DNA of 64,000 nucleotides from contig CAWIIB010000009.1 of NCBI GenBank assembly GCA_963836075.1, forward strand, positions 322,437 through 386,436, written 5' to 3'. This DNA is from an uncultured Acidobacteriota bacterium. GTDB taxonomy: Bacteria; Acidobacteriota; JAQAZP01. The notes under the pieces are model-generated. The model was not told where the DNA came from. It ran no database searches and saw only the letters and a program-made list of their open reading frames with translations. A program made the translations under genes and the position numbers. Shown in pieces: positions 8,676 through 49,515 of this stretch; positions within the stretch are counted from its first letter, which is position 1, and each line of letters opens with the position of its first letter.

Positions 8676-9834
8676 ATGACTGAATCCAGAGAACCGGCGG
8701 TCCCGAAAACCGCACCCGGGGCCGCCGGCGACACCCCGGCGGACTCCCGACCTGGCGAAGCCGGGCCGGGGATACTGATGCTCGACGCGGCCACGGCGCA
8801 CTCGCCGGCCATCGCCGCCGAGTTTCAGCAGCAGACCCAGGTGGCGGCGAACACCGAAGCGCCGCTGGACGAGCGCCTGGAGGCCTACGAGGACATCTTC
8901 GACAGCGAGGTGGGCGACACTTCGCTGTCCCGCTCACGCAACATCGAACGCGAAGTGGGGCTGCGGCAGATCTACCTCAAGTTCGAGGGGGGCAACCCCA
9001 CCGGCACGCAAAAGGACCGCATCGCCTTTGCCCAGGCCATGGACGCCATGCGCCGCGGCTACGACGCGGTCACCGTGGCCACCTGCGGCAACTACGGGGC
9101 GGCCCTTGCCCTGGCCGCCACCATGGCCGGCCTGCGCTGCGTGGTCTACCTCCCCGAGGGGTTCCACACCCGGCGGGTGGTGGAGATGGAGCAGCACGGG
9201 GTCGGAGATCGTGCGGGTCAAGGGGGACTACGAGGCGGCGGTGGTCGCCTCGCAGGAGCGGGCGGTGAAGGACGAGATCTACGACGCCAACCCCGGCGGG
9301 GCCAACACCATGATCCAGCTCAAGGCCTATGGAGAGATCGCCTACGAGATCTACGACGAGCTGCGCGACGCGCCGGCGGTGGTGGCCGTCCCCGTTTCCA
9401 ACGGCACCACCCTCGCCGGGATCCACCGCGGGTTCGTCAGCCTCTACCGCCGGGGCAAGACCTCGCGGATCCCGCGGATGGTGGCCGGGTCGTCCCACGG
9501 CAAGAACCCCATCGTCCGGGCCTTTTTGAAGAACATGGCCAGTTGCGAGGACCTCGACCCCGGCCAGATCAGGGAGACGGCGGTCAACGAACCGCTGATC
9601 AACTGGCACGCCATCGACGGCGACCTGGCCCTGGATGTGATCCGCGACACCGGCGGCTGGGCCGCCGATGCCAGCGACAAAGCGATGCTCGCCTGTTCGC
9701 GCATGCTGCGCGAGCGGGAAGGGCTCAACGTGCTCCCCGCCTCCACCGCCGGCCTGATGGTGCTCATCGAGCGGCACAAGCGGGAAGCACTGCCCGGCGA
9801 CCGTTACGTGGTCGTCCTCACCGGAAGAAGGTAG
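8676..9834 (+). CDS. PLP-dependent enzyme of the tryptophan-synthase-beta/threonine-synthase fold. The reading frame is interrupted by a 1-nt insertion near 9200 (frameshift or sequencing error).
   Basis: LKFEGGNPTGTQKDR (PLP-lysine motif; compare threonine synthase NPTGSFKDR); VATCGNYGAALA. The frame switches from the 8676 frame to the 9028 frame at the GGGG run around 9197-9200. Confidence 0.6.
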
Positions 9835-9839
9835 GAGTG

Positions 9840-10952
9840 ATGAACAGTTTACCGGAAGGGAACGCAATCGTTTATTGCCAGGGCGCTTTTGGCACGCCCA
9901 ACGGCAAGACGGCCCACGGGCTGGTCCGCCGCACCGACCGCTACACGGTCCTCTCCGTGGTGGACGGCCGCCACGCCGGGCAGGACGCCGGCCAGCTGCT
10001 GGACGGTACCCCAAAAGGGATCCCGGTGCTCAAAAACATCGACGCGGCGCTGGCCCGGGCCGCTGCCGACGGCACACCGGCGACCCACCTGGTGATCGGC
10101 CTCGCCCCGGACGGCGGGCGCCTGACCCCGGCAGCCCGCACCGACGTGATGGCCGCCATCCGCCAGGGGCTCCACGTGGACTGCGGGCTGCACGACTTCC
10201 TCTCCGAGGACCCCGAGATCGCCGCCCTCGCCGGGCAGCACCAGGTGCGAGATCCGCGACGTGCGCAAGCCGCCGCCGATCAGCCGGCTGCACTTCTTCT
10301 CCGGCAAGATCGAGGAGGTCGACTCCCTGGTCATCGCCCTCCTCGGCACCGACTCGGCGGTGGGCAAGCGGACCACCGCCTGGCTTGCTGGTGGAAGCGC
10401 TGCGCCAGGCCGGGATCAGTGCCGAGCTGGTGGGCACCGGTCAGACAGCCTGGATGCAGGGGGTGCGCTTCGGCATCATCCTCGACTCGCTGGTCAACGA
10501 CTTCGTTTCCGGCGAGATCGAGCACGCCGTCTGGTCGGCCTGGAAGGAAGCCGCGCCCCGAGGTGATCGTCATCGAGGGGCAGGGCAGCCTGATGAACCC
10601 GGCCTACCCCGGCGGGTTCGAGATCCTCGCCGCCGGCCGGCCCGACGCGGTGGTCCTGCAGCACGCCCCGGCCCGGCGGGACTACGACGGTTTCCCCGGC
10701 TACCCGATTCAGGGCATCGGCAAACAGATCGAGGCGGTGGAGCTGATCTCCGGCAAACCGGTGGTCGCGGTCACCGTGAACCACGAGGGGCTGGACGAGG
10801 AGGGTGTGGCCGAGGCCTGCGGCTGGATCAAGAAAACCACCGGCCTGCCGGCCTGCGACGTGCTCACCGGCGGCGCCGGCCCCGTGGTCGAGGCGATCAT
10901 CGAGCAGATCGAACTGGCGGCCGCCGAAGAGGATGACGACGATGATGAGTAA
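9840..10952 (+). CDS. DUF1611-family protein. The reading frame is interrupted by three +1 frame jumps (about 10245, 10385, 10560).
   Basis: MNSLPEGNAIVYCQGAFGTPNGKTAHGLVRRTDRYTVLSVVD... continues across frames as ...RKPPPISRLHFFSGKIEEVDSLVIALLGTDSAVGKRTTAWL / LVEALRQAGISAELVGTGQTAWMQG... / EVIVIEGQGSLMNPAYPGGFEILAAGRPDAVVLQHAP... The family call is from memory of the DUF1611 N-terminal signature. Confidence 0.5.
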   Translation: MNSLPEGNAIVYCQGAFGTPNGKTAHGLVRRTDRYTVLSVVDGRHAGQDAGQLLDGTPKGIPVLKNIDAALARAAADGTPATHLVIGLAPDGGRLTPAARTDVMAAIRQGLHVDCGLHDFLSEDPEIAALAGQHQVRDPRRAQAAADQPAALLLRQDRGGRLPGHRPPRHRLGGGQADHRLACWWKRCARPGSVPSWWAPVRQPGCRGCASASSSTRWSTTSFPARSSTPSGRPGRKPRPEVIVIEGQGSLMNPAYPGGFEILAAGRPDAVVLQHAPARRDYDGFPGYPIQGIGKQIEAVELISGKPVVAVTVNHEGLDEEGVAEACGWIKKTTGLPACDVLTGGAGPVVEAIIEQIELAAAEEDDDDDE

Positions 10953-13326
10953 GCAGCCGGGCAGCGAAGGCAAACCGCTCGCGCCACTCCATACCCTGAG
11001 GCGGCTGGAAGTGGGTCCGGTGCGGGTGGAGCCGCAGCGGCTCATCGCGCCCTACCGGGTGGTCGGCGGCGGCGTGGAGGACGGATCTGGAACTGATCTA
11101 CCGCTACGAGGAGGAAGTCTTCATCCCCGATGACCCGTCCTCGCTCAACCTGGCCGGAATGATCGCCGCCCAGGTGGCCCTCAACTACGGCCTCTTCTGC
11201 GACGAGATCGTCTTCCACGGCCCCTTCGACCACCATGACCGCCGTTTCATCGAATCGATGGCGGCCAACACGGCCCGGGAGATCTATGTCAAGAAGTTCC
11301 TCCAGCCCAACCCCTTCCTCCGCGGGCCGGCAGCCTCGCTGCCAGTGGTGAAGCAGAAGAGCTACCTCCGGGCCCGGCTGGTCTTCCCCGACGCCCCGGA
11401 CCGTGAAGGGGCCCGGGCACCAAGTTACAGTACCGGCTGGGCCTCGGACCACGGGAAACACGCGGTGCTCTCCAGCGGCGGCAAGGACAGCCTGCTCAGC
11501 TTCGGCCTGCTCAACGAGATCGGCCGCGAGACCCACCCGATCTTCATCAACGAGTCGGGGCGCCACTGGTTCACCGCGCTCAACGCTTACCGGCACTTGG
11601 CAGGGAACGTTCCCGGCACGGCCCGGGTCTGGACCAACTCCGACCGGGTTTTCTCCTGGATGCTGCGGCACCTCCGCTTCATCCGGCCCGACTTCGCCAC
11701 GGTCCGCTCCGACGACTACCCGATCCGGCTCTGGACCGTGGCGGTCTTCCTCTTCGGCGCCCTGCCCCTGCTGCGCAAGCGGGGCATCGGCCGGCTGCTC
11801 ATCGGCGACGAGTTCGACACCACCCGGCGGCTCTCCTTCCAGGGAATCACCCACTACGACGGGCTCTACGACCAGAGCCGCTACTTCGACAACGCCCTGA
11901 CCCGCTACTTCCAGGCGCAAGGGCTGGGGGGTCAGCCAGTTCTCGGTGCTCCGGCCGCTCTCCGAGCTGCTGATCGAGAAGATCCTCGTCGAGCGCTATC
12001 CCGAGCTGCAGGCAGCACCAGGTCTCCTGCCACGCCGCCCACGCTGCGCGGGGACCGCGTCCTGCCCTGCGGCCGCTGCGAGAAGTGCCGCCGCATCGTC
12101 GGCATGCTCTCCGCCATCGGCGCCGACCCGGGCAACTGCGGGTACACGCCGCAACAGATCGAACAGGGGCTGGCGAGGTTCTCGGTGAAGAGCGTGCACC
12201 AGGAGAGCGACTGCGCCGAGCAGGCGCTCCACATGCTGGGAGAGCGGGGGTTGCTGGGCGGGACGGAGAAACCGGCCGTGACAACCCGGCCGCGGCCCGA
12301 GATGCTCAAGCTGCGCTTCGACCCCGAACGGTCGCCGATGGATGACATCCCGGTGGACCTCCGTGAGCCGCTCTACCGGCTCTTTCTTGAGCACGCCTCG
12401 GGGGCGGTGAGGCGCAGCGGGCGGGTCTGGCTGGACACCGATGCCCTCGACCCGCAGGAGCTGGGCAAGCCCTATCCCTTCGAGCACCGGCTGGCCGGAG
12501 GCAATGCTTCCGGCCGCCGGGCCAGCCGCAGGGCCGCTGACGGGGCCCCGAACCACATCCTGGCCGAGCTGAGCTGGCCCGCGGCCCAGCGAAGGCTGCG
12601 CGAAGTGGACGTGGCGCTGCTGCCGGTGGGGGCCATCGAGCAGCACGGGCCCCACCTGCCGCTGGACGTCGACGCCTGGGATGCCGACTATCTCTGCCGC
12701 CGGGTGGCCGAGAGCTGCTCCGCCCCGCGGCCGCTGGTCCTGCCCCTGGTGCCCTACGGCGTCTCCTACCACCACGACGACTTCAGCGGCACGCTGAGCA
12801 TCGGCCCGGACACGCTCTCCAGGCTGGTCTACGAGATCGGGATGAGCGCGGCGCGCAACGGGATCTCCAAGCTGGTGATCATCAACGGCCACGGCGGCAA
12901 CTCGCCGTCGCTGCACTTTGCCGCGCAGATGATCAACCGCGACGCGAGGATCTTCACCTGGTGGACACCGGGGAATCGAGCGACCACGACATCGACACCC
13001 TCACCGAGACGCCCAACGACGTCCACGCCGGGGAGGTGGAGACCAGCACCGCCCTGGCCACCCGCCCCGAGCTGGTGGACATGTCGGCGGCCCGCCGTTT
13101 CGTTCCCGAGTTCTCCAGCCGTTACCTCGACTTCACCTCCAAGCGGAGCGTCGGCTGGTATACCCGGGTGGCCCAGATCTCGCCCACCGGGGTCCTCGGC
13201 GACCCCACCGTGGCCAGCGCGGAGAAAGGCCGCAAGATATGGGACGTGATGGTGAAGAACCTGGTTGAGTTCGTCGAGGACATTCGCGAACTGAGCCTGG
13301 AAGAGATCTACCAGCGGCGCTACTGA
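10942..13326 (+). CDS. Multidomain fusion: N-terminal domain + PP-loop ATP pyrophosphatase (SGGKDS) + CGxCxxC zinc ribbon (QueC/TtcA-like) + C-terminal creatininase-family amidohydrolase. At least 4 frameshifts (about 11085, 11930, 12010, 12960).
   Basis: HAVLSSGGKDSLLSFGLLNE (PP-loop); PCGRCEKCRRIVGML (C-x2-C-x2-C, as in QueC CGECPAC); VALLPVGAIEQHGPHLPLDVD...INGHGGN...HAGEVETS (creatininase family). It overlaps the DUF1611 stop by 11 nt. Confidence 0.5.
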
Positions 13327-13349: not shown

Positions 13350-14415
13350 ATGCGCATCACCGCAGTTGAGTCATGGCCCCATGCCCTGACCCTCGACGAA
13401 CCGTACACCATCGCCTACGAGACGGTGGACAAGGCGACCAACATATTTCTCCGCCTGGAGACCTCGACGGGGATCATTGGCTACGGCTGCGCAGCCCCCG
13501 ACGAGGCGGTGACCGGGGAGACGGAGGAGGAGGCGCTCACCGCGCTGCGCGAGGTCGCCGCGGCAACGCTGAAAGGCTCCGACCCGCTGCGGCATGCCCG
13601 GCTGATGGAGCTGCTGAAGAAGACGATGAGCGGCCGCCCGTCGGCGCTGGCCGCGGTGGACATGGCGCTGCACGACATTCTCGGCAAGGTCGCCGGCCTG
13701 CCGCTCTGGCGCCTGCTGGGCGGCTACCGTGACCGGATCCGGACCAGCATCACCATCGGCATCCTCCCGGTGGACGAGACGGTGGAGCGGGCGCTGGACT
13801 TCACCGCCCGCGGTTTCCGCTGCCTGAAGATCAAGGGCGGCCTCGACGTGGAGGAGGACGTCGACCCGGGTACTCGAGGTGCGCGAGGCCGTGGGCCCCG
13901 GTATCGAGCTGCGGTTCGACGCCAACCAGGGCTACTCGATGATCGACTCGCTGCACTTCGTCGACATGACCCGCTCGGCCAAGCTGGAGTTGATCGAACA
14001 GCCGACCCCGGTGGGCTCGCCCGACCTGCTGGGGCGGGTGGCCGGCCGGGTGCCGATCCCGGTGATGGCCGACGAGAGCCTGCTCACCCTGCGCGACGCC
14101 TTCCGCATCGCGCGCAACGACCTGGCCGACATGGTCAACATCAAGCTGATGAAGGTCGGCGGGATCGCCGAGGCGCTGCAGATCAATGCCGTGGCCCGCT
14201 CGGCGCGGCTGGAGGTGATGGTGGGCTGCATGGACGAAGCAGCCCTGGCCATCGCCGCCGGCCTGCACTTCGCCCTGGCCCGGCCCAACGTGATCTATGC
14301 CGACCTCGACGGCCACCTCGACCTGTCGGACGACCCGTCTGACGGGGCGGTGATCCTGAGAGACGGTACGCTGTTCCCCACCAACAGGCCGGGGCTGGGC
14401 TTTGACCTACCCTAG
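13350..14415 (+). CDS. Dipeptide epimerase (enolase superfamily, L-Ala-D/L-Glu epimerase-like). One frameshift near 13865.
   Basis: [52 protein letters not shown]...CLKIKGG... then, in the other frame, [19 protein letters not shown]...[13 protein letters not shown]...[10 protein letters not shown] (mandelate racemase/muconate-lactonizing-enzyme fold motifs). Confidence 0.65.
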
Positions 14416-16730
14416 AAGGGGAAGAAGACCGGCACCAGCACCACCATCAGGATCAGCAGGATGATGGTCAGCGGCGTGCCCACCTTGAGGTAGTCCGACA
14501 CCTTGTAGCCTCCTGCGCCCATCACCAGCAGGTTGGCCTTGTGCGAGAAGGGCGTCATGAAGGCCGCGGAGGTGGCCAGCGCCACCGCCATCATCACCGA
14601 CTGCTGGCTGATGCCCGCGTCCAGCGCGGCGGGCAGCACCACCGGAGCCATCAGCACCACCGCCGGGGCGCCGTCCAGGGCCTGGCTCAGGGCGCTGCCC
14701 AGCACCACCATTCCGGCCATGATCCCGTAGGGCCCCAGCGGCCCGGTCAGCGCGGTCACCGAGTCGGAGAGCAGTGCCGCCGCACCGGTGCGTTCGATGG
14801 CGATGCCCAGGGGCAGGATCGCGGCCACCAGGAAAACCGCCTTCCACTCCACCGAGCGGTAGGCCTCCTCCATGGTCACCGCTCCGAAGAGGGCCACCAG
14901 CGTGGCCGCGGTGAACGAGGCCACGTGTATCGGCATGTACCCGGTCACCACCATGGCGATCATCACCACCAGCGCGCCCACGGCCACCGGCGCCTTGCGG
15001 GTCCGGCGCTCCTCCTGGGCCGCCTGGGTCAGCACCACGTAGTCGGGGTGGGATCCCAACGCCCGGATCTGCTGCCAACTGCCCTGGACCAGCAGGGCGT
15101 CGCCCTCCCTGAGCCGCCGGCCGGCCAGCATGGTGTGGATCGCCTGCCCCTGGCTCCAGATGGCCAGCACCTGCAGCCCGGTCTTCTCGCGGAAGTTCAT
15201 TTCGGCCAGGGTCCTGCCCGCCGCCCGCGACCGTGGGGAAAGGGTCACCTCGACGATCCCCACGTCATCGGCCTGAATGCCGGAGCGGGTGATATCCCGC
15301 TCCAGCTGCACGTTGCCCAGGCTCACCAGCCGGCGGATCCGGTCGGTGTCTCCGGCCACCAGCAGCTGGTCCTCGGAGTGAATCCGCTCCAGCGGGGAAA
15401 CGGCCATCATCACCCGGTCCCCGCGGATGATCCCGGCCACGGTCAGGCCGTTCAGCTCGCCCAGGCGGGTCTCCCGCACCGTGGCCCCGGCCAGCGTCGA
15501 GCCGGAGTGCACCCGCAGCAGAAAGAGGTGCGACTTCAGTTCCCGCATGTCCGACTTGTCGAGGTGTGCCACCACCAGGTCGCCGGGGAACTCGGCCCCG
15601 TCCAGCTTCTCCGGCGCACCCACGGCAATGAGTTCGTCCCCCTCGCGGAAGGTCACCGCCGCCAGGTCGCTGTCGATCAACTCGCCATCCCGGCGGATAC
15701 CCACCACCTCCATGCCGTGACGGTCACGCAGGGTGAGGTCGCGCAGGGTCCGGCCGATGAAGCTCGAACCGGGGATAACGGCGGCCAGGATGCTGCGCAC
15801 GTAGCGGAACGCCTGGTCCAGGTCCTGCGGATCGGGCGCCGCCGGTGTCCGAAAGAGGTTTTGCACCTCGTCGTAAGCCCCCTCCACCAGCAGCACGTCG
15901 TTCTCCTCCAGCCGGGTGGCCGCCGTGGGGGTCAGGATCTTCTTGCCGCCCCGTTCGATGCTGACCACCTGCACCCCCAGGGTGTCGGTCAACTGCGCTT
16001 CACCGAGGGTCATTCCATCCAGGCCGGACCCGGGGAGCACGCGGATGGAGAAGAGCGACTCCTCGAGGTGGTAGACGCGGGTCAGGTCCACGGAGCGGGG
16101 GGCCCGGTCCGCGATGCCCTTGTCGGGGAGCAGCCAGCGGCCGATGGTGATCATGTAGAGGATCCCGCAGCCGAGCAGGATCGAGCCCATGGGCAGGAAG
16201 TCGAAGAGGGCGAAGGAGCCGAGGCCGCGGTCCCGCAGCATCTGGTCGGCGAGGATGTTGGGCGGGGTGCCCACCAGGGTCATGGTCCCGCCGAGGATGG
16301 CGCCGAAGGCCAGGGGGATGAAAAGCCGCGAGGGGCTGATCTCGGTCTTGCGGCAGATGCCGGCCACCGCCGGGAGCAGCACCGCCACGGCGGCGATGTT
16401 GTTCATGAAGGCCGAGAGCACGCCGCTGACCAGCATGATGGCGATGATCAGCGGCACCTCGCGGTTGCCGATCAGCTTGTGCACCCGCCCGGCGATGACG
16501 TCGGCCACCCCGGTGTGCAGCAGGGCCGCGCTGACAAAAAAGATCGAGAGCATGGTGATCACCGCCGGCGAGGCGAAACCGGTGAACGCCTCGGCCGGGG
16601 TGACGAAACCGGCCAGGGTGAGGATCACCAGGCCGATGAAGGCGGTCAGTTCCACCGGCAGCTTCTCGGTGAAGAAGAGCGCCGCCATCCCGGTGACCAG
16701 GACAAAAAGAAAGCCGATTTCCAGTGTCAT
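14412..16730 (-). CDS. SLC13/DASS-type anion permease with central tandem TrkA-C (RCK_C) regulatory domains.
   Basis: 772 aa. Permease halves at both ends (GTPPNIL...) and repeated TrkA-C-like segments in the middle (…[11 protein letters not shown]…VVSIERGGK…). Confidence 0.7.
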
Positions 16731-16767
16731 GTGCGCTGCTCCATAACCACCTCCCGCCCCTGGCGAT

Positions 16768-19722
16768 TCAGAGCGTGGCCATCTCCGAGTTGTCGAAGTT
16801 GCGGCGGTAGAACTCCATGTACTGCACCTTGCGCTCCAGGGCCCTGATCACCGTACGGCTGAAGTTGACCCCGGTGAACTTCTGCGCGCTGCCCAGCCCG
16901 CCGGGGCTGAAGACGTTGATCTCCATCAGCTTGTCACCGACGATGTCCAGGCCCACCAGGAACATCCCGTCCTGGACGATCTTCGGCCGCACGATCTCCA
17001 CGATGCGCAGCGCCTCATCGTCCACTTCGGCCGCGGCCAGCTTGCCGCCGGCGTGGATGTTCGAGCGCATGTCGCCCCCGGTGCGCACCCGGCGGAAAGC
17101 GGCATACTTGCCCTTTTCGCGCAGCGGCTGCCCGTTCATCAGGAAGAGCCGCATGTCCCCCTGCTCCGCCGCCGGCAGGTACTCCTGGGCGATGACGTAG
17201 CCGTCGCGGCTCACCGCGTCGATCATCTGGTTCAGGTTCGGCACGTCGTCCGGCCGGACGAGGAAGACGCTCTGCCCGCCCGAGCCCTGGAGCGGCTTGA
17301 GCACGATGGTCCCGCCCTGTTCCTTGGCAAAGGCCTTGATCTCCGAGCGGTCGCGGGTGATCAGGGTCTGCGGCCGCACCTCCTCGGGGAACATCTGGAA
17401 GTACATCTTGCTCTCGGCCTTGGACAGGCCGTTGGGGTCGTTGACCACGATCACCCCGTGGCGCATGGCCAGCCGGCCGAAGAGGATCCCGGCGCTGGCC
17501 GCCCAGGGGCGGGACATGGCGTCGGTGGAGGGATCGTTGCGCAGCATCAGCACGTCCAGGTCGTCCACGGTGATCCGCTTCTTCACCGCAGCCTTCCCTT
17601 GCAGGTCCTTGAGGTAGGTTTCGCTGTTCTTGTATTTCTTCTTCGGCACGCTGGTGGCCCGGGCGCGGATCTGCTCGTCCGGGTCGTAGGCCAGGTCGCC
17701 CACCCCGATGACCCACGACTCGTGCCCCATGTTGATCGCCGCCACCGCCAGCCGGCTGGTGGTGTACCCGCTCTGCTCGGTCATCACGTCGTTTACGACA
17801 AATCCGATTTTCATTATTTTCGTCCTTTCCACGAGGTCGGTTACCGAAAGCCCGCCAGCCAACCTGGCCAGGCGGGAGGCGGTATCCGGCCGGTTCATAA
17901 ACTCAGGCGTCAGCGGCGGCTCGTGCAGCACGCGCCGCAGGGTCAGTTCCTTGATGATCGGTATGTGCTCGGTGGCGATCTTGCCGATGAACAGCGGTCC
18001 CAGCTCGCCGCCGCCGGCCAGGTGGTCCAGCAGTTCCGCCAGGCCGCGGAGATAGATGGCGTCCTTGCTCAGCCCGCCGCCGCGGTGCACCCGCATCACC
18101 AGGGTGAAGGCGGCGCGCTGCTCGATCTTCTGCTCGTCGCGGATCGTGCGGAAGTTCTCGACAAAGCTCGCGCCATCCACCATCTGCTTCACCGCCAGCA
18201 CCCGGGCGGCCAGCAGGCGCAGCCGCGGCCGGCTCAACCCGCCCACCAGGTATTCGGCCAGCACGGCCAGGCCCTCCTGCAGCGCCTCGTACCCGGCCAG
18301 ACCGGCGCTGAGCAGCCGCAACGGCTGGGACCGGCCGTTGAACCAGGTCAGCGAGTGGGTGCCGATCTCGTGCTGCAGCAGCGCCTCGGCCCGCCGCACC
18401 GGGATACTGCTCCCCGCGCCCACCATCAGCGAACCGCGGGAAACCATCAGGCCGCTGCCCATGTCCCGGCGGATCTCCACCCCGGCCTTGAACCCGGACC
18501 ACTTCCCGCGGTAACGGGCGATCTCCTCCCGGGCCAGGCCGGCAAACGCTTCCGCCGCCAGCCGGCCGCCCCCGGCATCATCCCGCGCCCGCGGGGGGAA
18601 CCGCTGCAGGATCTCGTCGGCCATGGCGCCCAGTTCGTCGCTCACCCTGCCGTAGATCTGCAGCCCCCCGTAGAGGAAACGCGGGGTGCCGAGGTCGCAG
18701 AGCATGGTGATCTGCCGGTCCAGCTCGTCCTGCTTCTGGCGGAAGATGCGGGCCAGCGTCGGGTCCTCCACCCGCTCCAGCGCGATGGCGTAAAGCCGGC
18801 GCTTGAGCGCCGACGGGTCCACCGGCACCGGCCGGTAGCGGAAGAGCGGCGCCCGCTGGAACCGGCCGCGCCGGAACACGTTCCACGCCTGGGCGGCATT
18901 GACCGGAGTGGCCTGGATCAGCAGGTCGAACTGCTCGGCCACTTCGGCCAGCAGCCGGTCCACCTGCCAGACCGCCTTGACCACCGCGTTCCGGCCCAGC
19001 ACGTGGAAGTGCCGGGGACGGTGGGAGGTGCAGGCGCGGCTGAACTCGAAGAAGGTGCGCTGCAGCGCCCGGCTCAGCTGGCGCCGCAGGGCGCGGAGCA
19101 CCAGCGGGTACTCCAGTCCGCTCACCGGGTCGCGGTAGACCGGGTTGATCTCGAGGACCAACTGGCTGCAGTTCAGTTCCGCGGCGTCGGCCGCGGGGAT
19201 CAGCGGGGCGAGACGACCCGCTGAGACAGATCGCGAACGAATAACCTCCACCTGGGCCCGGCGTTTCTGCAGACGGACCAGACGCAGCGACTTTTCCAGG
19301 ACAGCCACCGGGCCGTCGATGCTTTCGTCGCGCGGGGCGCGGAGCCGAAAAGCCGGCACCGGCCCTTCATCGGGGCCGAGACCGAAGCGGTCAGCGGGTA
19401 CGGCCCGGACTTCCAGCACCAGAAAGGCGCCGAACAACGGGCCGACGGTCCGCACCACCTGCCCGGCCAGGGCGGCCAGCCCCGGCCGTTGGCGGGTCAG
19501 GGTTGAGCCGATGAGGTAGGAGGCCTCGGTGGTCACCAGCTTCTCCGTCCCCTGGTCCGCTCCCATTTTTGGCTGGCGGTAGAGGCAGAGAAAGGGCAAC
19601 TGGCGGTCGACGTGCAAGCGCCCGCCTTCGGGCAGGCTCCGGCGGACCTGCTTGTTGGCGGCCAGACGCAGGCCCACCTGGGTAACCAGCCGGTCGGTGA
19701 TGGTTGTCTGCCTGGGGACCAT
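16768..19722 (-). CDS. Fusion protein. N-terminal DUF1704/MATCAP-like zinc metallopeptidase (HExxH and QEGLA motifs). C-terminal GshB-type ATP-grasp ligase (glutathione-synthetase family).
   Basis: 984 aa. LLQHEIGTHSLTWFNG (HExxH); YEALQEGLAVLAEYLVGG (QEGLA). The C-terminal 350 aa from MKIGFVVNDVMTEQ... to ...GLDIVGDKLMEINVFSPGGLG is prokaryotic GshB-like. An internal RBS+ATG (GAAAGGACGAAAATAATG) sits at the domain junction, yet the frame is continuous. Confidence 0.7.
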   Translation of the reverse strand: MVPRQTTITDRLVTQVGLRLAANKQVRRSLPEGGRLHVDRQLPFLCLYRQPKMGADQGTEKLVTTEASYLIGSTLTRQRPGLAALAGQVVRTVGPLFGAFLVLEVRAVPADRFGLGPDEGPVPAFRLRAPRDESIDGPVAVLEKSLRLVRLQKRRAQVEVIRSRSVSAGRLAPLIPAADAAELNCSQLVLEINPVYRDPVSGLEYPLVLRALRRQLSRALQRTFFEFSRACTSHRPRHFHVLGRNAVVKAVWQVDRLLAEVAEQFDLLIQATPVNAAQAWNVFRRGRFQRAPLFRYRPVPVDPSALKRRLYAIALERVEDPTLARIFRQKQDELDRQITMLCDLGTPRFLYGGLQIYGRVSDELGAMADEILQRFPPRARDDAGGGRLAAEAFAGLAREEIARYRGKWSGFKAGVEIRRDMGSGLMVSRGSLMVGAGSSIPVRRAEALLQHEIGTHSLTWFNGRSQPLRLLSAGLAGYEALQEGLAVLAEYLVGGLSRPRLRLLAARVLAVKQMVDGASFVENFRTIRDEQKIEQRAAFTLVMRVHRGGGLSKDAIYLRGLAELLDHLAGGGELGPLFIGKIATEHIPIIKELTLRRVLHEPPLTPEFMNRPDTASRLARLAGGLSVTDLVERTKIMKIGFVVNDVMTEQSGYTTSRLAVAAINMGHESWVIGVGDLAYDPDEQIRARATSVPKKKYKNSETYLKDLQGKAAVKKRITVDDLDVLMLRNDPSTDAMSRPWAASAGILFGRLAMRHGVIVVNDPNGLSKAESKMYFQMFPEEVRPQTLITRDRSEIKAFAKEQGGTIVLKPLQGSGGQSVFLVRPDDVPNLNQMIDAVSRDGYVIAQEYLPAAEQGDMRLFLMNGQPLREKGKYAAFRRVRTGGDMRSNIHAGGKLAAAEVDDEALRIVEIVRPKIVQDGMFLVGLDIVGDKLMEINVFSPGGLGSAQKFTGVNFSRTVIRALERKVQYMEFYRRNFDNSEMATL

Positions 19723-19726
19723 GGAT

Positions 19727-20512
19727 CTACATCCGCTCCAGTTCTTCGATCACGCCGGGAACGGTGGAGCGCAGGGCGTCGCCCACCGCGGCCAGCAGGG
19801 CCGGGTCAGGCACGCCGGTCCACTCGTCCATGAAGAACTTCTTGAATTCGATGGCGATGGAGCAGCCGGTGCGGGGGAAGGTTTCGTGGACCCAGCCGGA
19901 GAACCTGGCGCCGCGGAACTTCACGTTCTCCCGCACGTCGAGCGGGCCGCCGGGGAAAGGGTAGGCCCGCAGATCGGCGATGAAGCGCTCCACCACCGGC
20001 GCCCAGAAGCGGCGGTCCATGCTGCCGGTTCCCAGGTTGACCTGGGGGTTTCCGGCCGGATCTTCCGGTTCGGCGCCGGGGCCGCCCCGGCGGTGGTTGT
20101 AGCTGTGCAGGTCGAAGACCATGAACCGGCCGTGCTGCCGCGCCATCTCCGAGAAGAGCTGTTCCATCGCCCGGTAAAACGCATCGTAACCGGCGAGGGA
20201 CCGCTGGGCCACGTCGGCCGGCAGCTCACCCTTCCAGACCTTGAGGCCCCAGGCGTCCTCGGGCGTGCGGTAGACCGCCTTGCCCCGGGGCCGGTTGAGG
20301 TCCACCTCGAAGCGCGAGTGGCGCCCGATGACCCGCGTGGGGCAGATGGCGGTCCACTGGCCGGTGAAGGGGTCTTCCTCCCGCAGGCGGTCCGCCTCGG
20401 GAAGGTTCATCACCTGCTCCACCTCGGGTCGCAGCTCGTGGCCGTCATGGACCGCCGCGGCGGCCACCGGCCCCTTGCCCTGTTCCAGTGTCCAGATCGT
20501 ACTCGTCATATC
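19727..20512 (-). CDS. N-formylglutamate amidohydrolase (FGase)-family protein.
   Basis: MTSTIWTLEQG...RPEVEQVMNLPEADRLREEDPFTG...VFDLHSYNHRR is FGase-like. Its stop lies 4 nt from the start of the MATCAP-GshB gene. Confidence 0.6.
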   Translation of the reverse strand, partial: DMTSTIWTLEQGKGPVAAAAVHDGHELRPEVEQVMNLPEADRLREEDPFTGQWTAICPTRVIGRHSRFEVDLNRPRGKAVYRTPEDAWGLKVWKGELPADVAQRSLAGYDAFYRAMEQLFSEMARQHGRFMVFDLHSYNHRRGGPGAEPEDPAGNPQVNLGTGSMDRRFWAPVVERFIADLRAYPFPGGPLDVRENVKFRGARFSGWVHETFPRTGCSIAIEFKKFFMDEWTGVPDPALLAAVGDALRSTVPGVIEELERM

Positions 20513-20719
20513 AACACCCTCAGCCGGCAGACGTCGTTGCTGCGACCACCGACAGTTCACCGGTGCAGCGGAACGTCACCGGTGGATTTGATTCCCTGGT
20601 TCAGATGTCTGCCGGGACAGCGAAAGGTAATCCGCGAAATGCACGGACTCTAATACTGTAACACGCCGGGAGAATGCAATAAAAAAGTAGCGTTTGATCG
20701 AGGGGCCGGGGCCCGGCTC

Positions 20720-21712
20720 TCACGGCCCCCAGCGGGCGCGGAAACCGCGGGTGTCGGTGTGAACGAAGGGGCCGTGGCTGCGGTTCTTTTTGTAGCGCCC
20801 CAGGCCGCCGGTAAACGGCTCGTACCACGGCTTGCCGAACATGCCGTCGATGATGTCGTAAACCACCGCCGCGTCACGGTAATCGACCGTCCCGTCACCG
20901 TTGAGATCGTCCATATCGCCGTCGGCCGGCTGCTCGTCGATGTAGATATCGGCGGCGTCGCCCCAGAGGTGGCGGCTGTATTCGACGTTGCCGATGTCGC
21001 GGTTGTACGCCGGTGTGCGGTAGCCGCTGAGGATGGCAAAGGTCCGGGCCGGGTACCCCGCCTCGTTCACCGCCTCGAGGACCAGTTCCAGTTTGAGCAG
21101 CAGCCTCACGCGGAGCGCCACGTATTTCGGGTATCCCCCGGCCTGCTTGCAGAGAAACTGCTTCAAGCGGAAATGCGGCGCGATCAGCGTCTCGGCGTTT
21201 GCCGGGGTCACCTCCACCAGGCCCGCCGGCGCCCGGTAGATCGGGAGCCGGCGCAGGGGGATCGACGGATACTCGCCGATGCGGTAGCCGTTGAGCGTGC
21301 CGTTCTTCACCCGGGACAGCGGCGCCATCACAAAGGCGTTGAGCCGCATCTGCCTGCCGGAGGGCGAACCGGTGATCCTGACCCGCACCAGGCCGGGCCG
21401 CCCACCAGGGGTCCAGCGCCACTTCCGGCCCGACACTGTTTCCACCCGCCCGCTTTCCGCCTCCAGAGTGTAACCGTCGCCATCGCCGGCATCGAGCACT
21501 TCGAAGACGGTGGGCGTCCCGGGCATCACGTAGACACCGAACACCCGGTACGGTATCCGCTCGTCACCCACGGAAACGGTGAACCCGGCCCGTTCGGCGG
21601 AGAACGGTGGGCGGTCGGCAGCCGCAGCGCCGCAGGCGGCGCAGGCCGCCATGATTGCTGCAATGACCAGCAGCGCCGCGGGCCGCCCGCTGCGGCACGG
21701 GATGCCGCTCAT
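20720..21712 (-). CDS. Peptidase M15 family lipoprotein (YcbK/MepK-like, DUF882-type).
   Basis: Lipoprotein signal LLVIAAIMAACAAC. C-terminal ...RTPAYNRDIGNVEYSRHLWGDAADIYI... matches the M15/DUF882 metal-binding region. It overlaps the upstream ldtD-like gene by 4 nt. Confidence 0.65.
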   Translation of the reverse strand: MSGIPCRSGRPAALLVIAAIMAACAACGAAAADRPPFSAERAGFTVSVGDERIPYRVFGVYVMPGTPTVFEVLDAGDGDGYTLEAESGRVETVSGRKWRWTPGGRPGLVRVRITGSPSGRQMRLNAFVMAPLSRVKNGTLNGYRIGEYPSIPLRRLPIYRAPAGLVEVTPANAETLIAPHFRLKQFLCKQAGGYPKYVALRVRLLLKLELVLEAVNEAGYPARTFAILSGYRTPAYNRDIGNVEYSRHLWGDAADIYIDEQPADGDMDDLNGDGTVDYRDAAVVYDIIDGMFGKPWYEPFTGGLGRYKKNRSHGPFVHTDTRGFRARWGP

Positions 21713-23385
21713 CGGCCGGCACCGGCGGCGATGACCGGCGGCTCGGCCATCGCCTCGTTCAGCGCGCCGTCCCGGTCGTAGATGTCCCGGCGAAACTGGA
21801 TCTCGCCGTTCTCCTCGGCCCAGGCGGTCCAGTAGAGCAGGTGCACCGGGATCGGCCGGGGCAGGGTCACCGTCTGTTCGCGTCCCGAGGCCACGGCCGC
21901 GGCGATCTTGCCGCGGTCCCAGGCGGGATCTTCGGCCAGCAGGTATACCGCCAGCTCCAGCGGCTTTTCGGTGCGGATGCAGCCGGAGCTGAAATCCCGC
22001 TGGGGCTGCGAAAAGAGCTCCCGCGTGGGCGTGTCGTGAATGTAGACATTGAACTTGTTGGGGAACATGAATTTCACCTGGCCCAGCGCGTTGAGCGGGC
22101 CCGGCTCCTGCCGCAGCCGGTAGGGGAACCGCTCGCGGTCCAAAGCCTTCCAGTCCACGCCGGCGGGGTCGATCTCGCGGGCGTCGGCGCCCCAGCCCTG
22201 GAAAACCTTGATCCCCATCCGGGCGAAGTAGGTCGGGTCCTTGAGGATCTCGGGCAGCTTGTCCTGCACGGCAAGGTTGTGCGGGACGTTCCAGGAGGGG
22301 CTGAACACCAGGTAGGTCATCAGGGAGCTGAACACCGGAGTCCGGCGGAAAGGCCGGCCGACGATGGCCCTCATGTTGAGTGCCGACCGGTTGTCCTGCA
22401 CCACGTCCAGCTCGAAGTTGGCGATGTTGACCAGGATGTGGCGCCGGCCCAGGTCCTTGGGCAGCCAGCGCCAGCGCTCCATGTTGGCCAGCAGTTGTTC
22501 GACACGCTGCTTCGCCGGCACGTTGAGCGCCTCGATGCTCTTCGGCCCGACGACGCCGTCGGCGGCCAGGCCGTGCCGCCGCTGGAACCGCCGCACCGCT
22601 TCGGCCAGGATATCGTCGAAAACCTCGCCCCCGGCCGACCCGGCATCGAGATCGCCCGACGCGGCCAGCCGGGCGGAAAGCAGTCTGACCCGCTCGCCGG
22701 TGTCCCCGGCTTCCAGCTTTTCCCCGCCGGGCACCGGCGCCCAGCCCCCCGCGGCGTGCAGTGCACGGTAGCGGGCCAGCGCCTGCCGCATGCAGCCGTA
22801 CCCGTCGTGGGCTGGACGCAGGCCGTCAAGGGCGGCTTCGATCCCGGTCCCCTCAAGGGCGTTTTCCAGCACATCGGCCAAATCCCCCTCACGGCGGCTG
22901 GCGTGCCACTGGGGGTCCACCGTCTCCGGGTCGAGACGCCCGGAGAGCAGGTGAGAGCCACAGACCAGGAACGCATCGCTGAGCAGGAGGTCCAGGTCGG
23001 CCAGCCGGCCGAGGCTGAACGGTTTCCCCGCATCCCGGTTCGCCTTCACCTCCTCCAGGACCTGGACGATTCCGGCCAGGTGGTAATCCGACGGGTTGAG
23101 CCCGTCAGCGGACAGACCGCGGATCGCGGCCACCATCGCCTCGGCCCGCGGTCCCGGCCCCGCCTCACCGGACCAGGCCGGCCGGAAGCCTCGACGTTCG
23201 TAAAACACCGGCAATACCCGGCTGGCATGAACCCGCTCGCCGTTGACCTCTATTCGCGGCGGCACTCCCGCCGCCTCGATCCGTGTTCGGATATGTTCAT
23301 CCAGCCGTTCAACCAGCAACCGGGCATGGGCTGGAACAGAGGCAAGGGCGACCAGCACGGTGATCAGCGTGAGCCGGCGCATCAT
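21709..23385 (-). CDS. L,D-transpeptidase of the YcbB/LdtD type (PG-binding + YkuD domains).
   Basis: Signal peptide MMRRLTLITVLVALASVPAHA. The peptidoglycan-binding repeat RFQRRHGLAADGVVGPKSIEAL. The YkuD catalytic region ...HDTPTRELFSQPQRDFSSGCIRTEKPLELA. Confidence 0.75.
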   Translation of the reverse strand: MMRRLTLITVLVALASVPAHARLLVERLDEHIRTRIEAAGVPPRIEVNGERVHASRVLPVFYERRGFRPAWSGEAGPGPRAEAMVAAIRGLSADGLNPSDYHLAGIVQVLEEVKANRDAGKPFSLGRLADLDLLLSDAFLVCGSHLLSGRLDPETVDPQWHASRREGDLADVLENALEGTGIEAALDGLRPAHDGYGCMRQALARYRALHAAGGWAPVPGGEKLEAGDTGERVRLLSARLAASGDLDAGSAGGEVFDDILAEAVRRFQRRHGLAADGVVGPKSIEALNVPAKQRVEQLLANMERWRWLPKDLGRRHILVNIANFELDVVQDNRSALNMRAIVGRPFRRTPVFSSLMTYLVFSPSWNVPHNLAVQDKLPEILKDPTYFARMGIKVFQGWGADAREIDPAGVDWKALDRERFPYRLRQEPGPLNALGQVKFMFPNKFNVYIHDTPTRELFSQPQRDFSSGCIRTEKPLELAVYLLAEDPAWDRGKIAAAVASGREQTVTLPRPIPVHLLYWTAWAEENGEIQFRRDIYDRDGALNEAMAEPPVIAAGAGR

Positions 23386-24072
23386 GGGGTGTCCTGTTCA
23401 GTGGCCTCGACAACCACCGCCACCGCCACGTCGGGCCACTGCCCCCCCAGGGGCTGGATCGACGGCGGGGCGATGATCTTGCAGAAAATGGTCGTGGACT
23501 CGCGAATCGTCCCGAGATAGACCGGCGTGGTGAGCAGAGTGGTGTTGCTGTCGCCGCCGCTTTCCGCCGCGCGCACCCGGACCGTTGCCGGGGAAACGCG
23601 AACCTCCCCCATCAGCAGACCCTCGGGCAGGGTGCCCACCAGCTGCGGCTGTATCCGGTATTCCTGTTCGCGGATCTCGTTCAGGGTCACCTCGAACGAC
23701 GGCGGGATCGGCTTCGAGCAGGCTGATCCCCCGGGGCAGCGAAACGTTATCCTCGGTGATCACCACCGTCTGTGTCCCGGGCAGGGCGCCGGACAGGTCC
23801 ACTCTCACCTGCAGACGGAAGGGGTCGAGCCGTTCCAGCTCGCTCAGCGGGCCGGCCAGGCGCAGCAGGGCATCGACCCGTTTCTCGCCGCCCAAGCCGA
23901 GGTGGGAAGGCAGGGAGACGTACTCGACGGGTGCTGAAATCACCCGTTCCCGCACCTCGTATTGCCGGTACACCACCGCGGACCAGAAAAAAATCGCCAG
24001 GACCAGCGGGATGATCAGCGACAGGGCGACACTTCGCGTCCCGCCCTCGGCAGTTCGGACCGGCAGGATGAC
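23382..24072 (-). CDS. YbbR/CdaR-like protein with a 1-nt frameshift near 23705. The boundary with cdaA is ambiguous: there is no stop between them in this frame.
   Basis: TM helix LSLIIPLVLAIFFWSAVV, then YbbR-like repeats (...QVRVDLSGALPGTQTVVITEDNVSLPRGISLLE / EVTLNEIREQEYRIQPQLVGTLPEGLLMGEVRVSPATVRVRAAES...). Confidence 0.45.
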
Positions 24073-24074
24073 CA

Positions 24075-24843
24075 GCGACCGCTGCCAGTGGGCGATGAGC
24101 TCCTCCTCGAAGACTTCCCGGCTCTCGATCACCCGGCCCCGGCCGCCGCTGAACAGCATCACCGTCCCCCGTTCTTCGGAAACCACCGCCACCAGGGCAT
24201 CGGTCACCTCGGTCAGACCGGCGGCGGCGTGGTGCCGGGTCCCCAGGGTCTCGGGGAGCAGGTTCGACCGCGACATGGGGAGCCGGACACCCAGCGCGGC
24301 CAGCCGGCCGTCCTCCACGATCACCGCCCCGTCGTGACCGGGGGAGTGGACCTCGAAAATACTCTGCAGCAGCGTCAGGCTGGGCTGGCCGTCCACCGGG
24401 TGCCCGCCGTGAACCCACTCGGCGATCGACTCGCGGCCCGGCATAACCAGCAGCGCCCCCACCCGATCGCCGGCCAGGGCGAAGGCGGTTTCAGCGAGGG
24501 TCCCGGCCAGGCCGCCGCCCGGTCCGCTCCGGCGCTGGCGGTGCAGCGAGGCGGCCCGCTCGAAGATCTTGCGGATTTCGGGCTGGAAAATGACGATCAG
24601 GGCCACCAGGGCCACCGGGCTGAGGTTGGAAAAGATCCACTCCAGCCCGCGCAGCTGGAGCAGGCTGGCCAGGAAGAACACCGCCGCGGTGAGCAGAATC
24701 CCGGCGAGGATCTTCCAGGTCCCCAGCCGGCGCAATGTCCGGTAGGCGATGAAAAGGGCCAGGGTGATCAGCAGGATGTCGAGGACTTCGCGCCAGCCGA
24801 AGACTTCGAAGAACGTGCGCATTGAGAGGATCGTTGATTCCAT
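24075..24843 (-). CDS. cdaA: Diadenylate cyclase CdaA (c-di-AMP synthase), membrane-anchored.
   Basis: Three N-terminal TM helices (MESTILSMRTFFEVFGWREVLDILLITLALFIAY...). The DAC domain motifs DGAVIV and GTRHHAAAGLTE (RHR-type). Confidence 0.7.
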
Positions 24844-24982
24844 GGTCACCACTGAACGGGCAGTCCGGCCCCTGCACCCTGCCTGCACCATGATATTGAA
24901 ATCGACACAATCGAAGCATCGCCCCGGTCACAGATCACTATAGACGTGATCTGCAGGGGATAACAAGGGACTGGAACTCCTG

Positions 24983-25666
24983 TCACATCCCCTTCCCCGC
25001 CACTCCCCTCACCCACTCGACCCAGCCGTCGAACCCTTCGCCGGTCTGGGCCGACAGTTCGGCCAGCGGGATCGCGCCGTTGATCTTTCGCAAGTTGGCC
25101 CGGGCGGCATCCAGATCGAACTTCAGGTGGGGCAACAGGTCTGTCTTGCTCAGCACCGCCAGGTCCGAGACCCGGAAGGCGAGGGGATACTTGAGCGGCT
25201 TCTCCTCCCCCTCGGTCACCGAAAGCACGGCCACCCGGGCGGTCTGCCCCAGGTCGAACTCGGCGGGGCAGACCAGGTTGCCCACGTTCTCGATGAAGAG
25301 GAGGTCGAGGTCTGAAAGTGAAATCCGGTCCAGCGCCTGCTTCAGCGTGCCGGCCTCGAGGTGGCAGGCGCCGCCGAACCCCTCGGTCTGGATCTGGACC
25401 GTGGGGACGCCGAACCGGGAGATGCGCTCGGCGTCACAGGAGGTGGCGATGTCGGCGGCGATCACGCCGACCCGCAAGGTCGCGCCCAGCCGTGAGATGG
25501 TCTCCTCGATCAGCGCCGTCTTTCCCGAACCGGGGCTGCCGATCACATCGATGACGCAGACCCCCGCCTCGGCGAAACGCCGGCGGTTCTCCTCAGCCAA
25601 CCGGTCGTTGGCCTGCAGAATGCTGGTCACCACGCTGTATTTTCCGGGGCCTGCCTCATCCCTCAT
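24983..25666 (-). CDS. hypB: [NiFe]-hydrogenase nickel-incorporation GTPase HypB.
   Basis: GSPGSGKTALIEETI (P-loop) ... ENVGNLVCPAEFDLG ... LSKTDLL. Confidence 0.85.
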   Translation of the reverse strand: MRDEAGPGKYSVVTSILQANDRLAEENRRRFAEAGVCVIDVIGSPGSGKTALIEETISRLGATLRVGVIAADIATSCDAERISRFGVPTVQIQTEGFGGACHLEAGTLKQALDRISLSDLDLLFIENVGNLVCPAEFDLGQTARVAVLSVTEGEEKPLKYPLAFRVSDLAVLSKTDLLPHLKFDLDAARANLRKINGAIPLAELSAQTGEGFDGWVEWVRGVAGKGM

Positions 25667-26011
25667 CTAGTCCACCTCCACGGCGAAAAGCTCCAGCTCC
25701 CGGCCGCTGACCAGCTCCAGGTCGGGCGACCCGCAGCCGGAGCAGAGAAAACAGGGTTCCTCGATTTCAACACTGATCCCGCAGGCCCTGCACGTGCCCC
25801 GGACCGGCACCATGGTGATCTCCAGGGAACTGCCGGCAAGCGGGGTATCTTCCGCCAGGACACCATAGAGAAACTTCAGGTTGTCCGGCACCACCGCGGT
25901 GAGCCGGCCCACGCGGACGGAGACGGTCTCCACCCGGCCGGCGATCTTCCCTCCGGCCAACTGCTGTTCAACCGCCTTGATGATGCTGAGCGCGATGGAG
26001 GCTTCGTGCAT
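25667..26011 (-). CDS. hypA: Hydrogenase nickel insertion protein HypA.
   Basis: MHEASIALSII...; zinc site CRACG...CSGCGS. Confidence 0.85.
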   Translation of the reverse strand: MHEASIALSIIKAVEQQLAGGKIAGRVETVSVRVGRLTAVVPDNLKFLYGVLAEDTPLAGSSLEITMVPVRGTCRACGISVEIEEPCFLCSGCGSPDLELVSGRELELFAVEVD

Positions 26012-28094: not shown

Positions 28095-28336
28095 CCCTCC
28101 GCCCCTTTGCCAGAGCCATCCGCCGTTCCGAACGCCTCGCCGAGCAGGGCCAGCGTCTCCTCCGCCTCCTCCCGGTCGAGGACCTGGATCGCGAACCCGG
28201 CATGGGTCAGAACGTACTGGCCCACTTCCACTGCGGAGAGGAGCTGGATGTGGACCGTGCGCTCGGTGCCGCCGAAGTCGACCCTGGCGGTCTCCCCCTC
28301 GATCCGGATCACCTTCCCTGGTACTGCGAGACACAT
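28091..28336 (-). CDS. hypC: Hydrogenase assembly chaperone HypC.
   Basis: N-terminal MCLAVPGKVI (the MC(L/I)(A/G)(I/V)P signature), 81 aa. Confidence 0.85.
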   Translation of the reverse strand: MCLAVPGKVIRIEGETARVDFGGTERTVHIQLLSAVEVGQYVLTHAGFAIQVLDREEAEETLALLGEAFGTADGSGKGAEG

Positions 28337-28348
28337 TTGCCGCTCCGT

Positions 28349-30700: not shown

Positions 30701-30707
30701 GACAGAA

Positions 30708-30720
30708 CTGCCGTCGGCAG
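30708..30720. promoter_or_regulatory. Perfect palindrome CTGCCG-T-CGGCAG in the hypF/hoxE divergent intergenic region. Candidate operator or 5'-UTR hairpin.
   Basis: Seen directly. It lies 8-29 nt upstream of the alternative hypF starts. Confidence 0.3.
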
Positions 30721-30952
30721 ATTTTATTACGGATTGACAAGGACGGGTAGAACGATCGTCAACAGAATCCTAATCCGCCCGAAAAGCGGCTGTTCGACCT
30801 CACTCCTATTGAACCCCGTAACTATTCGGTGGATAATACCTTGAAGCCAACAACCGAAATTGAATCGACTCTTCTTGACCATGAAACGGGAAGCCACTAT
30901 TGCTTGCGGGATTCGTGACAACAATCCCGGAAGTCCATAGTAGGAAGCACCG

Positions 30953-34330: not shown

Positions 34331-34340
34331 GGCTGCGATC

Positions 34341-44352: not shown

Positions 44353-44450
44353 GTCATGTTGCCTCGATCCGGCCGGATAGACTATCCTTTCTTCGTCTCA
44401 TTCCCCTCTAAAAGGAAGAACCACCCCGGGGTCAACGAAGGGCCACCGAC

Positions 44451-49446: not shown

Positions 49447-49515
49447 CCCGGCCATTCACTGCCCGCCGGGGGAAGAGCTTACCAACACGAATAGCCCCGG
49501 GCAATGTGGACTGTT

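Follow-up and report, generated by a model that had tools for sequence, protein, structure and literature searches.

A 64-kb stretch of the genome of an uncultured Acidobacteriota bacterium (contig CAWIIB010000009.1 of assembly GCA_963836075.1, positions 322,437 to 386,436; hereafter the window) carries on its minus strand three co-directional open reading frames (ORFs), which encode an N-formylglutamate amidohydrolase (FGase)-family protein, a protein of 984 amino acids (aa) and a permease. We find that the 984-aa ORF consists of the second and third genes of a conserved three-gene module, made up of an FGase, a DUF1704-MATCAP peptidase and a PRK12458-type ATP-grasp ligase, and that these two genes have been joined in the window by one inserted base. 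The module is widespread and mis-annotated. The interpretation that we favor, with a probability of roughly 55%, is that it would drive, at the expense of ATP, a cycle that builds and trims a Glu-containing peptide or oligomer (an acidic protein tail being less likely), tied to ion and osmotic homeostasis.

The operon and its parts

The features of the operon, in window positions, are the following:

19727-20512, minus strand: FGase-family amidohydrolase of 261 aa (PF05013), a stand-alone gene; orthologs of 260 aa occupy the matching position in the related loci L001, L002 and L004
16768-19722, minus strand: the 984-aa ORF, open throughout, internal stop absent
19018-19722, minus strand: degenerate FGase-like N-domain of the 'DUF1704' protein, aa 1-235
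17863-18960, minus strand: MATCAP/DUF1704 gluzincin peptidase domain, aa 255-620, with HEIGTH at 18355-18372 and QEGLA at 18265-18279
17812-17830, minus strand: junction GGAAAGGACGAAAATAATG, with the Shine-Dalgarno sequence (SD) at 17823-17830, the ancestral ligase ATG at 17812-17814 and the extra T at 17816
16768-17814, minus strand: PRK12458-type ATP-grasp ligase, GshB/RimK-like, 348 aa from the internal ATG
14412-16730, minus strand: permease of CitMHS/DASS type, 772 aa, with four central TrkA_C (RCK_C) domains according to Pfam
20513-20719, minus strand: intergenic region upstream of the operon, with a GC-rich hairpin and T-run that terminate the M15-peptidase gene lying upstream, and then an AT-rich stretch

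The FGase ORF spans 19727-20560 in full, and the ATG at 20512 is its most likely true start. Spacers are short: 4 nucleotides separate the FGase stop from the ATG of the 984-aa ORF, and 37 separate the ligase stop from the permease. An earlier reading of this DNA, made without database searches (the sequence-only reading), had described these ORFs, their domains and the 4-nucleotide gap, and our ORF calls, Pfam matches and the sequence itself agree with that description.

A conserved three-gene module

A scan of one genome per species supplied 80 further loci for a survey. The trio of FGase, DUF1704-MATCAP and PRK12458 ATP-grasp genes was found in constant order in about 72 of the 80 loci, and a stop/start overlap of -4 (ATGA, GTGA or TTGA) joins peptidase and ligase genes in 39 of the approximately 72 loci with a downstream ligase, which suggests translational coupling of the second and third genes. 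The tightly coupled, dedicated peptidase/ligase/FGase system that the sequence-only reading had proposed from a single locus is thus a recurrent one. The scan matched at least 592 species genomes from many phyla; among the matches listed, no relative exceeded 56% identity. The loci belong to Planctomycetota, Chloroflexota, Acidobacteriota, Gemmatimonadota, Poribacteria, Myxococcota, Calditrichota, Ignavibacteria, Bacteroidota, Actinomycetota and Proteobacteria, and the trio also resides on Sinorhizobium pSymB and on Aminobacter and Shinella replicons.

Parts of the module are fused pairwise elsewhere, in some cases sporadically and in others regularly. An FGase-ligase fusion (P0175, 624 aa) and two FGase-DUF1704 fusions (P0245, 843 aa; L048, 7203-9878, 891 aa, in the same frame) were recovered, and in Photobacterium sp. 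GJ3 (L091, 5098-7095) a 665-aa protein combines an intact FGase domain (HHGGRLRPE, DIHS) with a MATCAP domain, its gene overlapping the end of the PRK12458 ligase gene. Since such other pairwise 'Rosetta-stone' fusions of the parts occur, they argue that the three activities act together. Apparent fusions in L025, L050, L055 and L084 were discarded as over-extended ORFs in GC-rich DNA; among the loci, only L048 holds a true same-frame FGase-DUF1704 fusion.

A single inserted base joins peptidase and ligase

The closest relatives of the window by identity (L001, 84%; L002, 82%; L004, 73%) all carry the same operon in unfused form, with a peptidase gene of 634-636 aa and a separate ligase gene of 348 aa. 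At the junction, L001 reads ...ACA AAA AAA TGA and the window ...ACG AAA ATA ATG A. Alignment with the three relatives shows that the extra T at 17816 brings peptidase and ligase into one frame, in which the ancestral TGA is no longer read; removal of this T in silico yields ACG AAA AAA TGA (T-K-K-stop), ending as in L001. The domain junction also contains an internal SD, GGAAAGGA, at 17823-17830, followed by the ATG at 17812-17814. This SD is encoded by the last peptidase codons and is conserved in the relatives. The sequence-only reading had taken the internal ribosome-binding site and ATG as a hint that the ligase might also be made separately; the signal is real and, judged from the alignment, is the ancestral start of a separate ligase gene.

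Database searches gave the same picture. Among 5.8 billion clustered proteins we obtained 3276 matches, the best 120 of which were all 595-692 aa long and covered about 64% of the query, which corresponds to the peptidase part alone. When 1.84 billion cluster representatives were searched by HMMER without filters, 6803 matches were obtained, and both halves occurred together in none of the best 150; a fused homolog would have ranked above all of these. Furthermore, no fused peptidase-ligase was present in the approximately 72 loci with a downstream ligase, and no DUF1704-ligase fusion in 85 related loci. Because the searches and the 85 loci contained no other such fusion and the window lies one T away from the unfused state, the claim that a writer and an eraser had been fused here by design fails.

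It is possible, at somewhat less than even odds, that the T is nevertheless real and that the window encodes a genuine bifunctional enzyme, an adaptive fusion of writer and eraser in the form of a 108-kDa peptidase-ligase, with free ligase made in addition from the internal start. The ORF is open, and the pairwise fusions of other module parts indicate that the proteins probably work in contact. Moreover, neighboring genes match those of the relatives in length, so that the assembly is not visibly error-prone in this region. Against these points stand the uniqueness of the case among thousands of homologs, its origin in one base at an ATGA overlap that leaves no linker, the unfused state of relatives at 73-84% identity, and the possibility of an assembly error: we give a true (recent) mutation and a sequencing or assembly error about equal odds as the source of the T. 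The fusion itself is of lesser weight, mainly hinting that both proteins can function side by side.

The peptidase belongs to the MATCAP family

Sequence, motif and fold all place the peptidase in the MATCAP family. Pfam MATCAP/DUF1704 (PF08014) matched aa 283-620 with an E value of 1.4e-87 and 294.5 bits (gathering cut-off 27), and the cut-off of TIGR02421, 'QEGLA motif protein', was marginally missed (335.3 versus 338.65 bits); the Photobacterium member reaches 448 bits with this model. HEIGTH (aa 451-456) and QEGLA (aa 482-486) align exactly to the catalytic HEIGTH and EEGLA of human MATCAP (7z5g). In an AlphaFold2 model of the peptidase (mean confidence score, pLDDT, 86), the top Foldseek matches were MATCAP structures 7z5g and 7z6s (E 7e-9; target-normalised TM 0.67-0.71), followed by M32 gluzincin carboxypeptidases. 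The active site of the peptidase is intact, and the alignment places both motifs on the MATCAP catalytic site, as had been supposed from the letters of the DNA. The label HExxH then given to the first motif has to be corrected, HEIGTH being an HExxxH motif. In MATCAP, HExxxH includes the catalytic Glu (H280/E281/H285) and the third metal ligand resides in the EEG motif; the spacing is an unusual one, typical of MATCAP/TMCP enzymes and of DPP III (PMC10499314). Activity of the bacterial peptidase on tubulin is unlikely, and its surroundings show no tubulin context.

The N-domain (aa 1-235), which the sequence-only reading had left undescribed, has a fold that matches FGase, M14 and PghP proteins. 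In a global alignment with the FGase it is without the HDGHE segment, and DLHS is replaced with LEVRA (family consensus vEiWs); GRLHVDRQLP, corresponding to SRFEVDLNRP, and LEINP, corresponding to IEFKK, are retained. By analogy to PghP and M14, we take HDGHE and DLHS to be the metal-binding motifs. Because both are lost, the N-domain is probably a pseudo-enzyme, a catalytically dead FGase-like domain, which may still bind a ligand that bears a carboxylate or provide a docking site for the active FGase.

The ligase is of the GshB/RimK branch

The ATP-grasp part contains GSH-S_N (aa 637-766) and GSH-S_ATP (aa 772-948, E 3.4e-50) domains. It passes the cut-off of the PRK12458 subfamily model NF009110 (491.4 versus 408 bits) and misses those of the GshB equivalogs NF003573 (214.7 versus 272) and TIGR01380 (201.5 versus 299.05). 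By these curated thresholds the ligase is not GshB; it belongs to the GshB/RimK branch, not to that of TTL. The NF009110 cut-off is exceeded as well by the ligases whose genes adjoin QEGLA genes in Photobacterium, Aminobacter and L010. Alignment to E. coli GshB (1gsa; E 8e-38, about 35% identity) revealed equivalents of K160, R210, R225, D273, E281 and N283, which we take to have ATP and Mg roles in the E. coli enzyme, together with a GGxxRxNxxAGG flexible loop.

Conservation within the trio is uneven. Across 54 loci, median pairwise identity was 69.5% for the ligase, 55.2% for the FGase and 47.5% for the DUF1704 protein, and in each pairwise comparison the ligase exceeded the peptidase. Some Planctomycetota and Gemmatimonadota have full-length PRK12458 paralogs, two or three in tandem, behind the DUF1704 gene. 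Tandem copies number three each in L036, L049 and L051 and two each in L009 and L044, and those of L010 lie at 9899-13131. The paralogs hint at stepwise additions or at several substrates.

Could the ATP-grasp half simply be GshB, engaged in ordinary glutathione synthesis beside unrelated neighbors? RefSeq names the orthologs 'glutathione synthetase', and the identity to the E. coli enzyme and the conserved flexible loop are in line with this name. We nonetheless consider the explanation very improbable, given scores below both GshB equivalog cut-offs and above that of PRK12458, an operon that is locked with two hydrolases across phyla, and tandem paralogs in some genomes. Furthermore, no gshA was encountered among the ORFs scanned, which were part of those in the 64-kb window.

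The FGase stands alone and the permease is an accessory

The stand-alone FGase matched PF05013 with 73.3 bits (cut-off 28.9; E 4e-20) and carries the motifs HDGHE, SRFEVDLNRP, DLHS and IEFKK. Its score with the HutG equivalog TIGR02017 was 21.3 bits against a cut-off of 278.75, and there were no hut genes among its neighbors; identity with HutG was rejected on both grounds.

The permease matched CitMHS (305 bits), Na_sulph_symp (52 bits) and four TrkA_C models, which bears out the downstream permease with RCK_C domains that had been described for this window. The DASS/SLC13 model TIGR00785 gave 119.9 bits, with a cut-off of 198.6 that was not reached. By these scores the protein is classed as an ion-transporter-superfamily member with RCK_C domains. 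In L001 and L004 (91-93% identity; again 772 aa) and in L027 (39%) a counterpart stands at this place in the operon, whereas most other loci have none. Found in the operon only in L001, L004 and L027, the permease is a lineage-specific accessory outside the conserved module, and a coupling of the system to transport through it, as the sequence-only reading had envisaged, would likewise be lineage-specific.

These observations bear on a catabolic or salvage role, in which the permease would import an acidic peptide or N-acyl-glutamate, the hydrolases would degrade it and the ligase would re-activate a fragment, as in murein-peptide recycling. A DASS/CitMHS anion permease is part of the operon here, and genes related to peptides or D-Glu (MR_MLE, creatininase-like, DUF1611, YkuD and M15) are found nearby; neither the permease nor these neighbors are conserved outside the closest relatives. 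A purely catabolic route leaves little room for a ligase that consumes ATP and is better conserved than the other two proteins, and we regard such a role as quite improbable.

Ion and osmotic context

All neighboring ORFs of the related loci were clustered. Apart from sigma-54 activators, which are neighbors in 10 loci, recurrent neighbors were three MscS groups, CorA, MgtE, CNNM/CorC, prokaryotic cation-chloride cotransporters and CitMHS-TrkA_C permeases. At least one such ion channel or transporter lies within 8 kb in 26 of the 57 loci that are 12 kb or longer; MscS is present in 21 of these 57 and a Mg2+ transporter in 17. Two loci have a co-directional gene inserted between those for peptidase and ligase: mgtE in L026 (5767-7161) and a large mscS-family gene in L044 (9874-13365). 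Ion channel and transporter families make up about 0.3% of a typical genome, and the enrichment near the trio is large when judged against this rough share rather than a computed control. In the lineage of the window, the c-di-AMP synthase gene cdaA is located just upstream.

Expression data, which do not depend on gene context, point in the same direction. In a transcriptome of Photobacterium damselae at 1% versus 3% NaCl, 'GshB' A0J47_RS17020 was up 38-fold, the QEGLA gene RS17025 27-fold and RimK 52-fold at low salt (PMC10308900). The salt-regulated 'GshB', on chromosome II, was treated as a glutathione synthetase in that study (PMC10308900, Table 2). From annotation and from synteny with Photobacterium sp. 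GJ3, this pair of genes apparently represents the PRK12458 ligase and the peptidase of the module. Gene context and this one transcriptome lead us to infer a link of the module to ion and osmotic homeostasis.

Two further observations concern similar genes. A 426-aa short-form QEGLA protein, which has neither an FGase-like domain nor a neighboring ligase, is encoded beside betIBA/BCCT osmoprotectant genes on a plasmid of Pseudoalteromonas sp. HL-AS1 (L090, 5986-7266); this loose osmotic link was not used for inference. The window itself contains a gene for an SLC12-type cation-chloride cotransporter (44451-46664, plus strand), which coincides with an AT skew of -0.25 (44001-46000) and follows a stretch at 36-44 kb with a GC content of 0.59-0.63, compared to 0.66-0.72 elsewhere.

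A proposed build-and-trim cycle

In the cycle that we propose, the ligase would use ATP to convert a carboxylate of a Glu-containing acceptor into an acyl-phosphate and would then add an amino acid, in the manner of GshB and RimK. The MATCAP-like domain would take the C-terminal residue or residues off the ligase product. The dead FGase-like domain, which keeps the R/D/R motif that we assume to bind carboxylates, might hold the substrate by its glutamyl part or serve as a docking site for the active FGase, and the latter would cleave the remaining N-acyl- or gamma-glutamyl amide. Together the enzymes would assemble and take apart, under regulation, a small Glu-containing peptide or oligomer, or with lower probability an acidic protein tail; one conceivable role is to adjust how much free glutamate serves as counter-ion to K+ and Mg2+.

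Several points weigh against this interpretation. A ligase and hydrolases co-expressed on the same bond would look futile unless regulated, and a ligase as highly conserved as this one is more readily explained by a conserved macromolecular substrate than by a metabolite. The association with ion transporters holds in 46% of the long loci, not in all, and has a rough expectation as its yardstick, and the P. damselae genes were assigned by annotation and GJ3 synteny, not by sequence. No biochemical study of bacterial members was found in a literature search of limited coverage. In the literature searched we found nothing on the function of bacterial DUF1704/QEGLA proteins, and no paper that mentions MATCAP and ATP-grasp together.

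The conservation of the ligase leads to a different view, the reversible tagging of protein C-termini, in which the ligase would add Glu or another residue to the C-terminus of a conserved housekeeping protein, much as RimK modifies ribosomal protein S6 and TTL/TTLL modify tubulin, the peptidase would erase it and the FGase would recycle by-products. The only characterised enzymes of the MATCAP family trim acidic protein tails and also deglutamylate (PMC10499314). The ligase, at a median identity of 69.5% versus 47.5% for the peptidase, evolves as if facing a conserved macromolecule; it resembles the RimK family, and RimK was itself co-induced 52-fold at low salt (PMC10308900). Set against this, no candidate substrate gene is conserved in the neighborhood, GshB (the closest characterised relative of the ligase) and the FGase family act on small molecules, and anion and ion transporters as neighbors fit metabolites better. 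We judge protein tagging to be unlikely and retain the cycle on a small Glu-containing compound as the preferred interpretation.

A more far-reaching idea, which we consider speculative and rather unlikely, is that an ancient salinity-responsive write-and-erase system, in which a GshB/RimK-type ligase extends and a MATCAP-type carboxypeptidase trims an acidic C-terminal tail or an oligo-glutamyl compound with the aid of FGase-like modules, tunes the balance of K+, Mg2+ and glutamate, that eukaryotic MATCAP descended from such a system, and that its writer and eraser act as one polypeptide in the window.

The trio is the setting in which the MATCAP family naturally occurs in bacteria; the one function known for the family is the trimming of tubulin tails. 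The identity of the substrate would show what role a MATCAP-type peptidase had before eukaryotes, and might reveal a new glutamate-based peptide or protein modification in salt and magnesium homeostasis. The names under which the genes are stored in databases ('glutathione synthetase', 'N-formylglutamate amidohydrolase', 'flavohemoglobin expression-modulating protein') are misleading. The trio is present in tractable organisms, including Sinorhizobium meliloti (pSymB) and Photobacterium.

Upstream region and other genes in the window

The AT-rich stretch 5' of the operon (TTGCAT ... TACAGTATTA) could be a candidate promoter; a consensus scan upstream of the operon returned none, and no sigma-54 motif was found there. 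Rfam searches of the window and eight related loci gave no riboswitch or other hit near the operon, and no regulator of the module was found. Upstream of the operon (20720-24891, minus strand) follow genes for an M15-type peptidase and a YkuD L,D-transpeptidase with a peptidoglycan-binding domain, and then cdaA. This arrangement is common to L001 and L002; in L004, about 0.3 kb without any gene separates cdaA from the FGase gene downstream.

On the other side of the operon, the plus strand encodes a 758-aa protein with a partial match to pyridoxal-phosphate enzymes (PALP) and with DUF1611 N and C domains (8676-10952), a 696-aa protein whose creatininase domain is confined to the C-terminal third (11159-13249) and, after it, an enolase-superfamily (MR_MLE) protein (13350-14342). 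An MR_MLE gene and a long creatininase protein are also found near the trio in L004.

Farther away, HypB-like, HypE, HypD and HypF genes, a NuoF-like diaphorase and the large subunit of a NiFe hydrogenase (24983-35765) look like a bidirectional (Hox-type) hydrogenase cluster. A 675-aa ORF (39676-41703, minus strand) has an unusual architecture, with an N-terminal response-regulator receiver domain and a DASS/CitMHS transporter, and adjoins a dCache histidine kinase (37377-39086); phosphorylation might gate this permease directly. Two minus-strand ORFs, of 865 aa (46858-49455) and 368 aa (33003-34109), had no Pfam match at E <= 1e-5, and the former faces a similarly long ORF on the opposite strand (46834-49446), which makes its coding strand ambiguous.

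Comparison with known systems

The module shares features with four groups of characterised enzymes. With GshB and RimK, the poly-glutamate ligase of S6, its ligase has in common the ATP-grasp fold, the GSH-S_N and GSH-S_ATP domains, the ATP/Mg residues and a glycine-rich flexible loop. It differs from both in scoring below their equivalog cut-offs, in belonging to the PRK12458 subfamily, in being always operonic with two hydrolases and in the presence of some tandem paralogs.

FGase/HutG, the PghP/YndL poly-gamma-glutamate hydrolases and M14 carboxypeptidases resemble the FGase gene in PF05013 and motifs, and the peptidase N-domain in fold. However, the FGase of the module falls below the HutG cut-off and is without nearby hut genes, and the N-domain has lost HDGHE and DLHS.

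The cyanophycin system of CphA, CphB and CphZ likewise encodes an ATP-grasp ligase with dedicated peptidases that dismantle its product, and is linked to the amino-acid pool and to osmotic conditions. The enzyme families are different ones, and the link of the module to salinity stems from gene context and one RNA-seq study. In E. coli, gamma-glutamyl peptides reportedly feature in osmoadaptation, as McLaggan and colleagues are said to have described in 1990.

The pairing of eukaryotic MATCAP/TMCP enzymes (KIAA0895L, KIAA0895) with TTL/TTLL ligases is the comparison that the sequence-only reading had drawn. Its peptidase side stands, with PF08014, the positions of HExxxH and (E/Q)EG and the fold all shared; its ligase side does not, the bacterial partner being of GshB/RimK type rather than TTL, and the comparison remains an analogy. 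Bacterial hosts are not known to use tubulin tails, and the bacterial peptidase adds an FGase-like domain and is accompanied by a third enzyme. What the two systems share is a logic, that of an ATP-grasp ligase paired with a carboxypeptidase on acidic C-termini.

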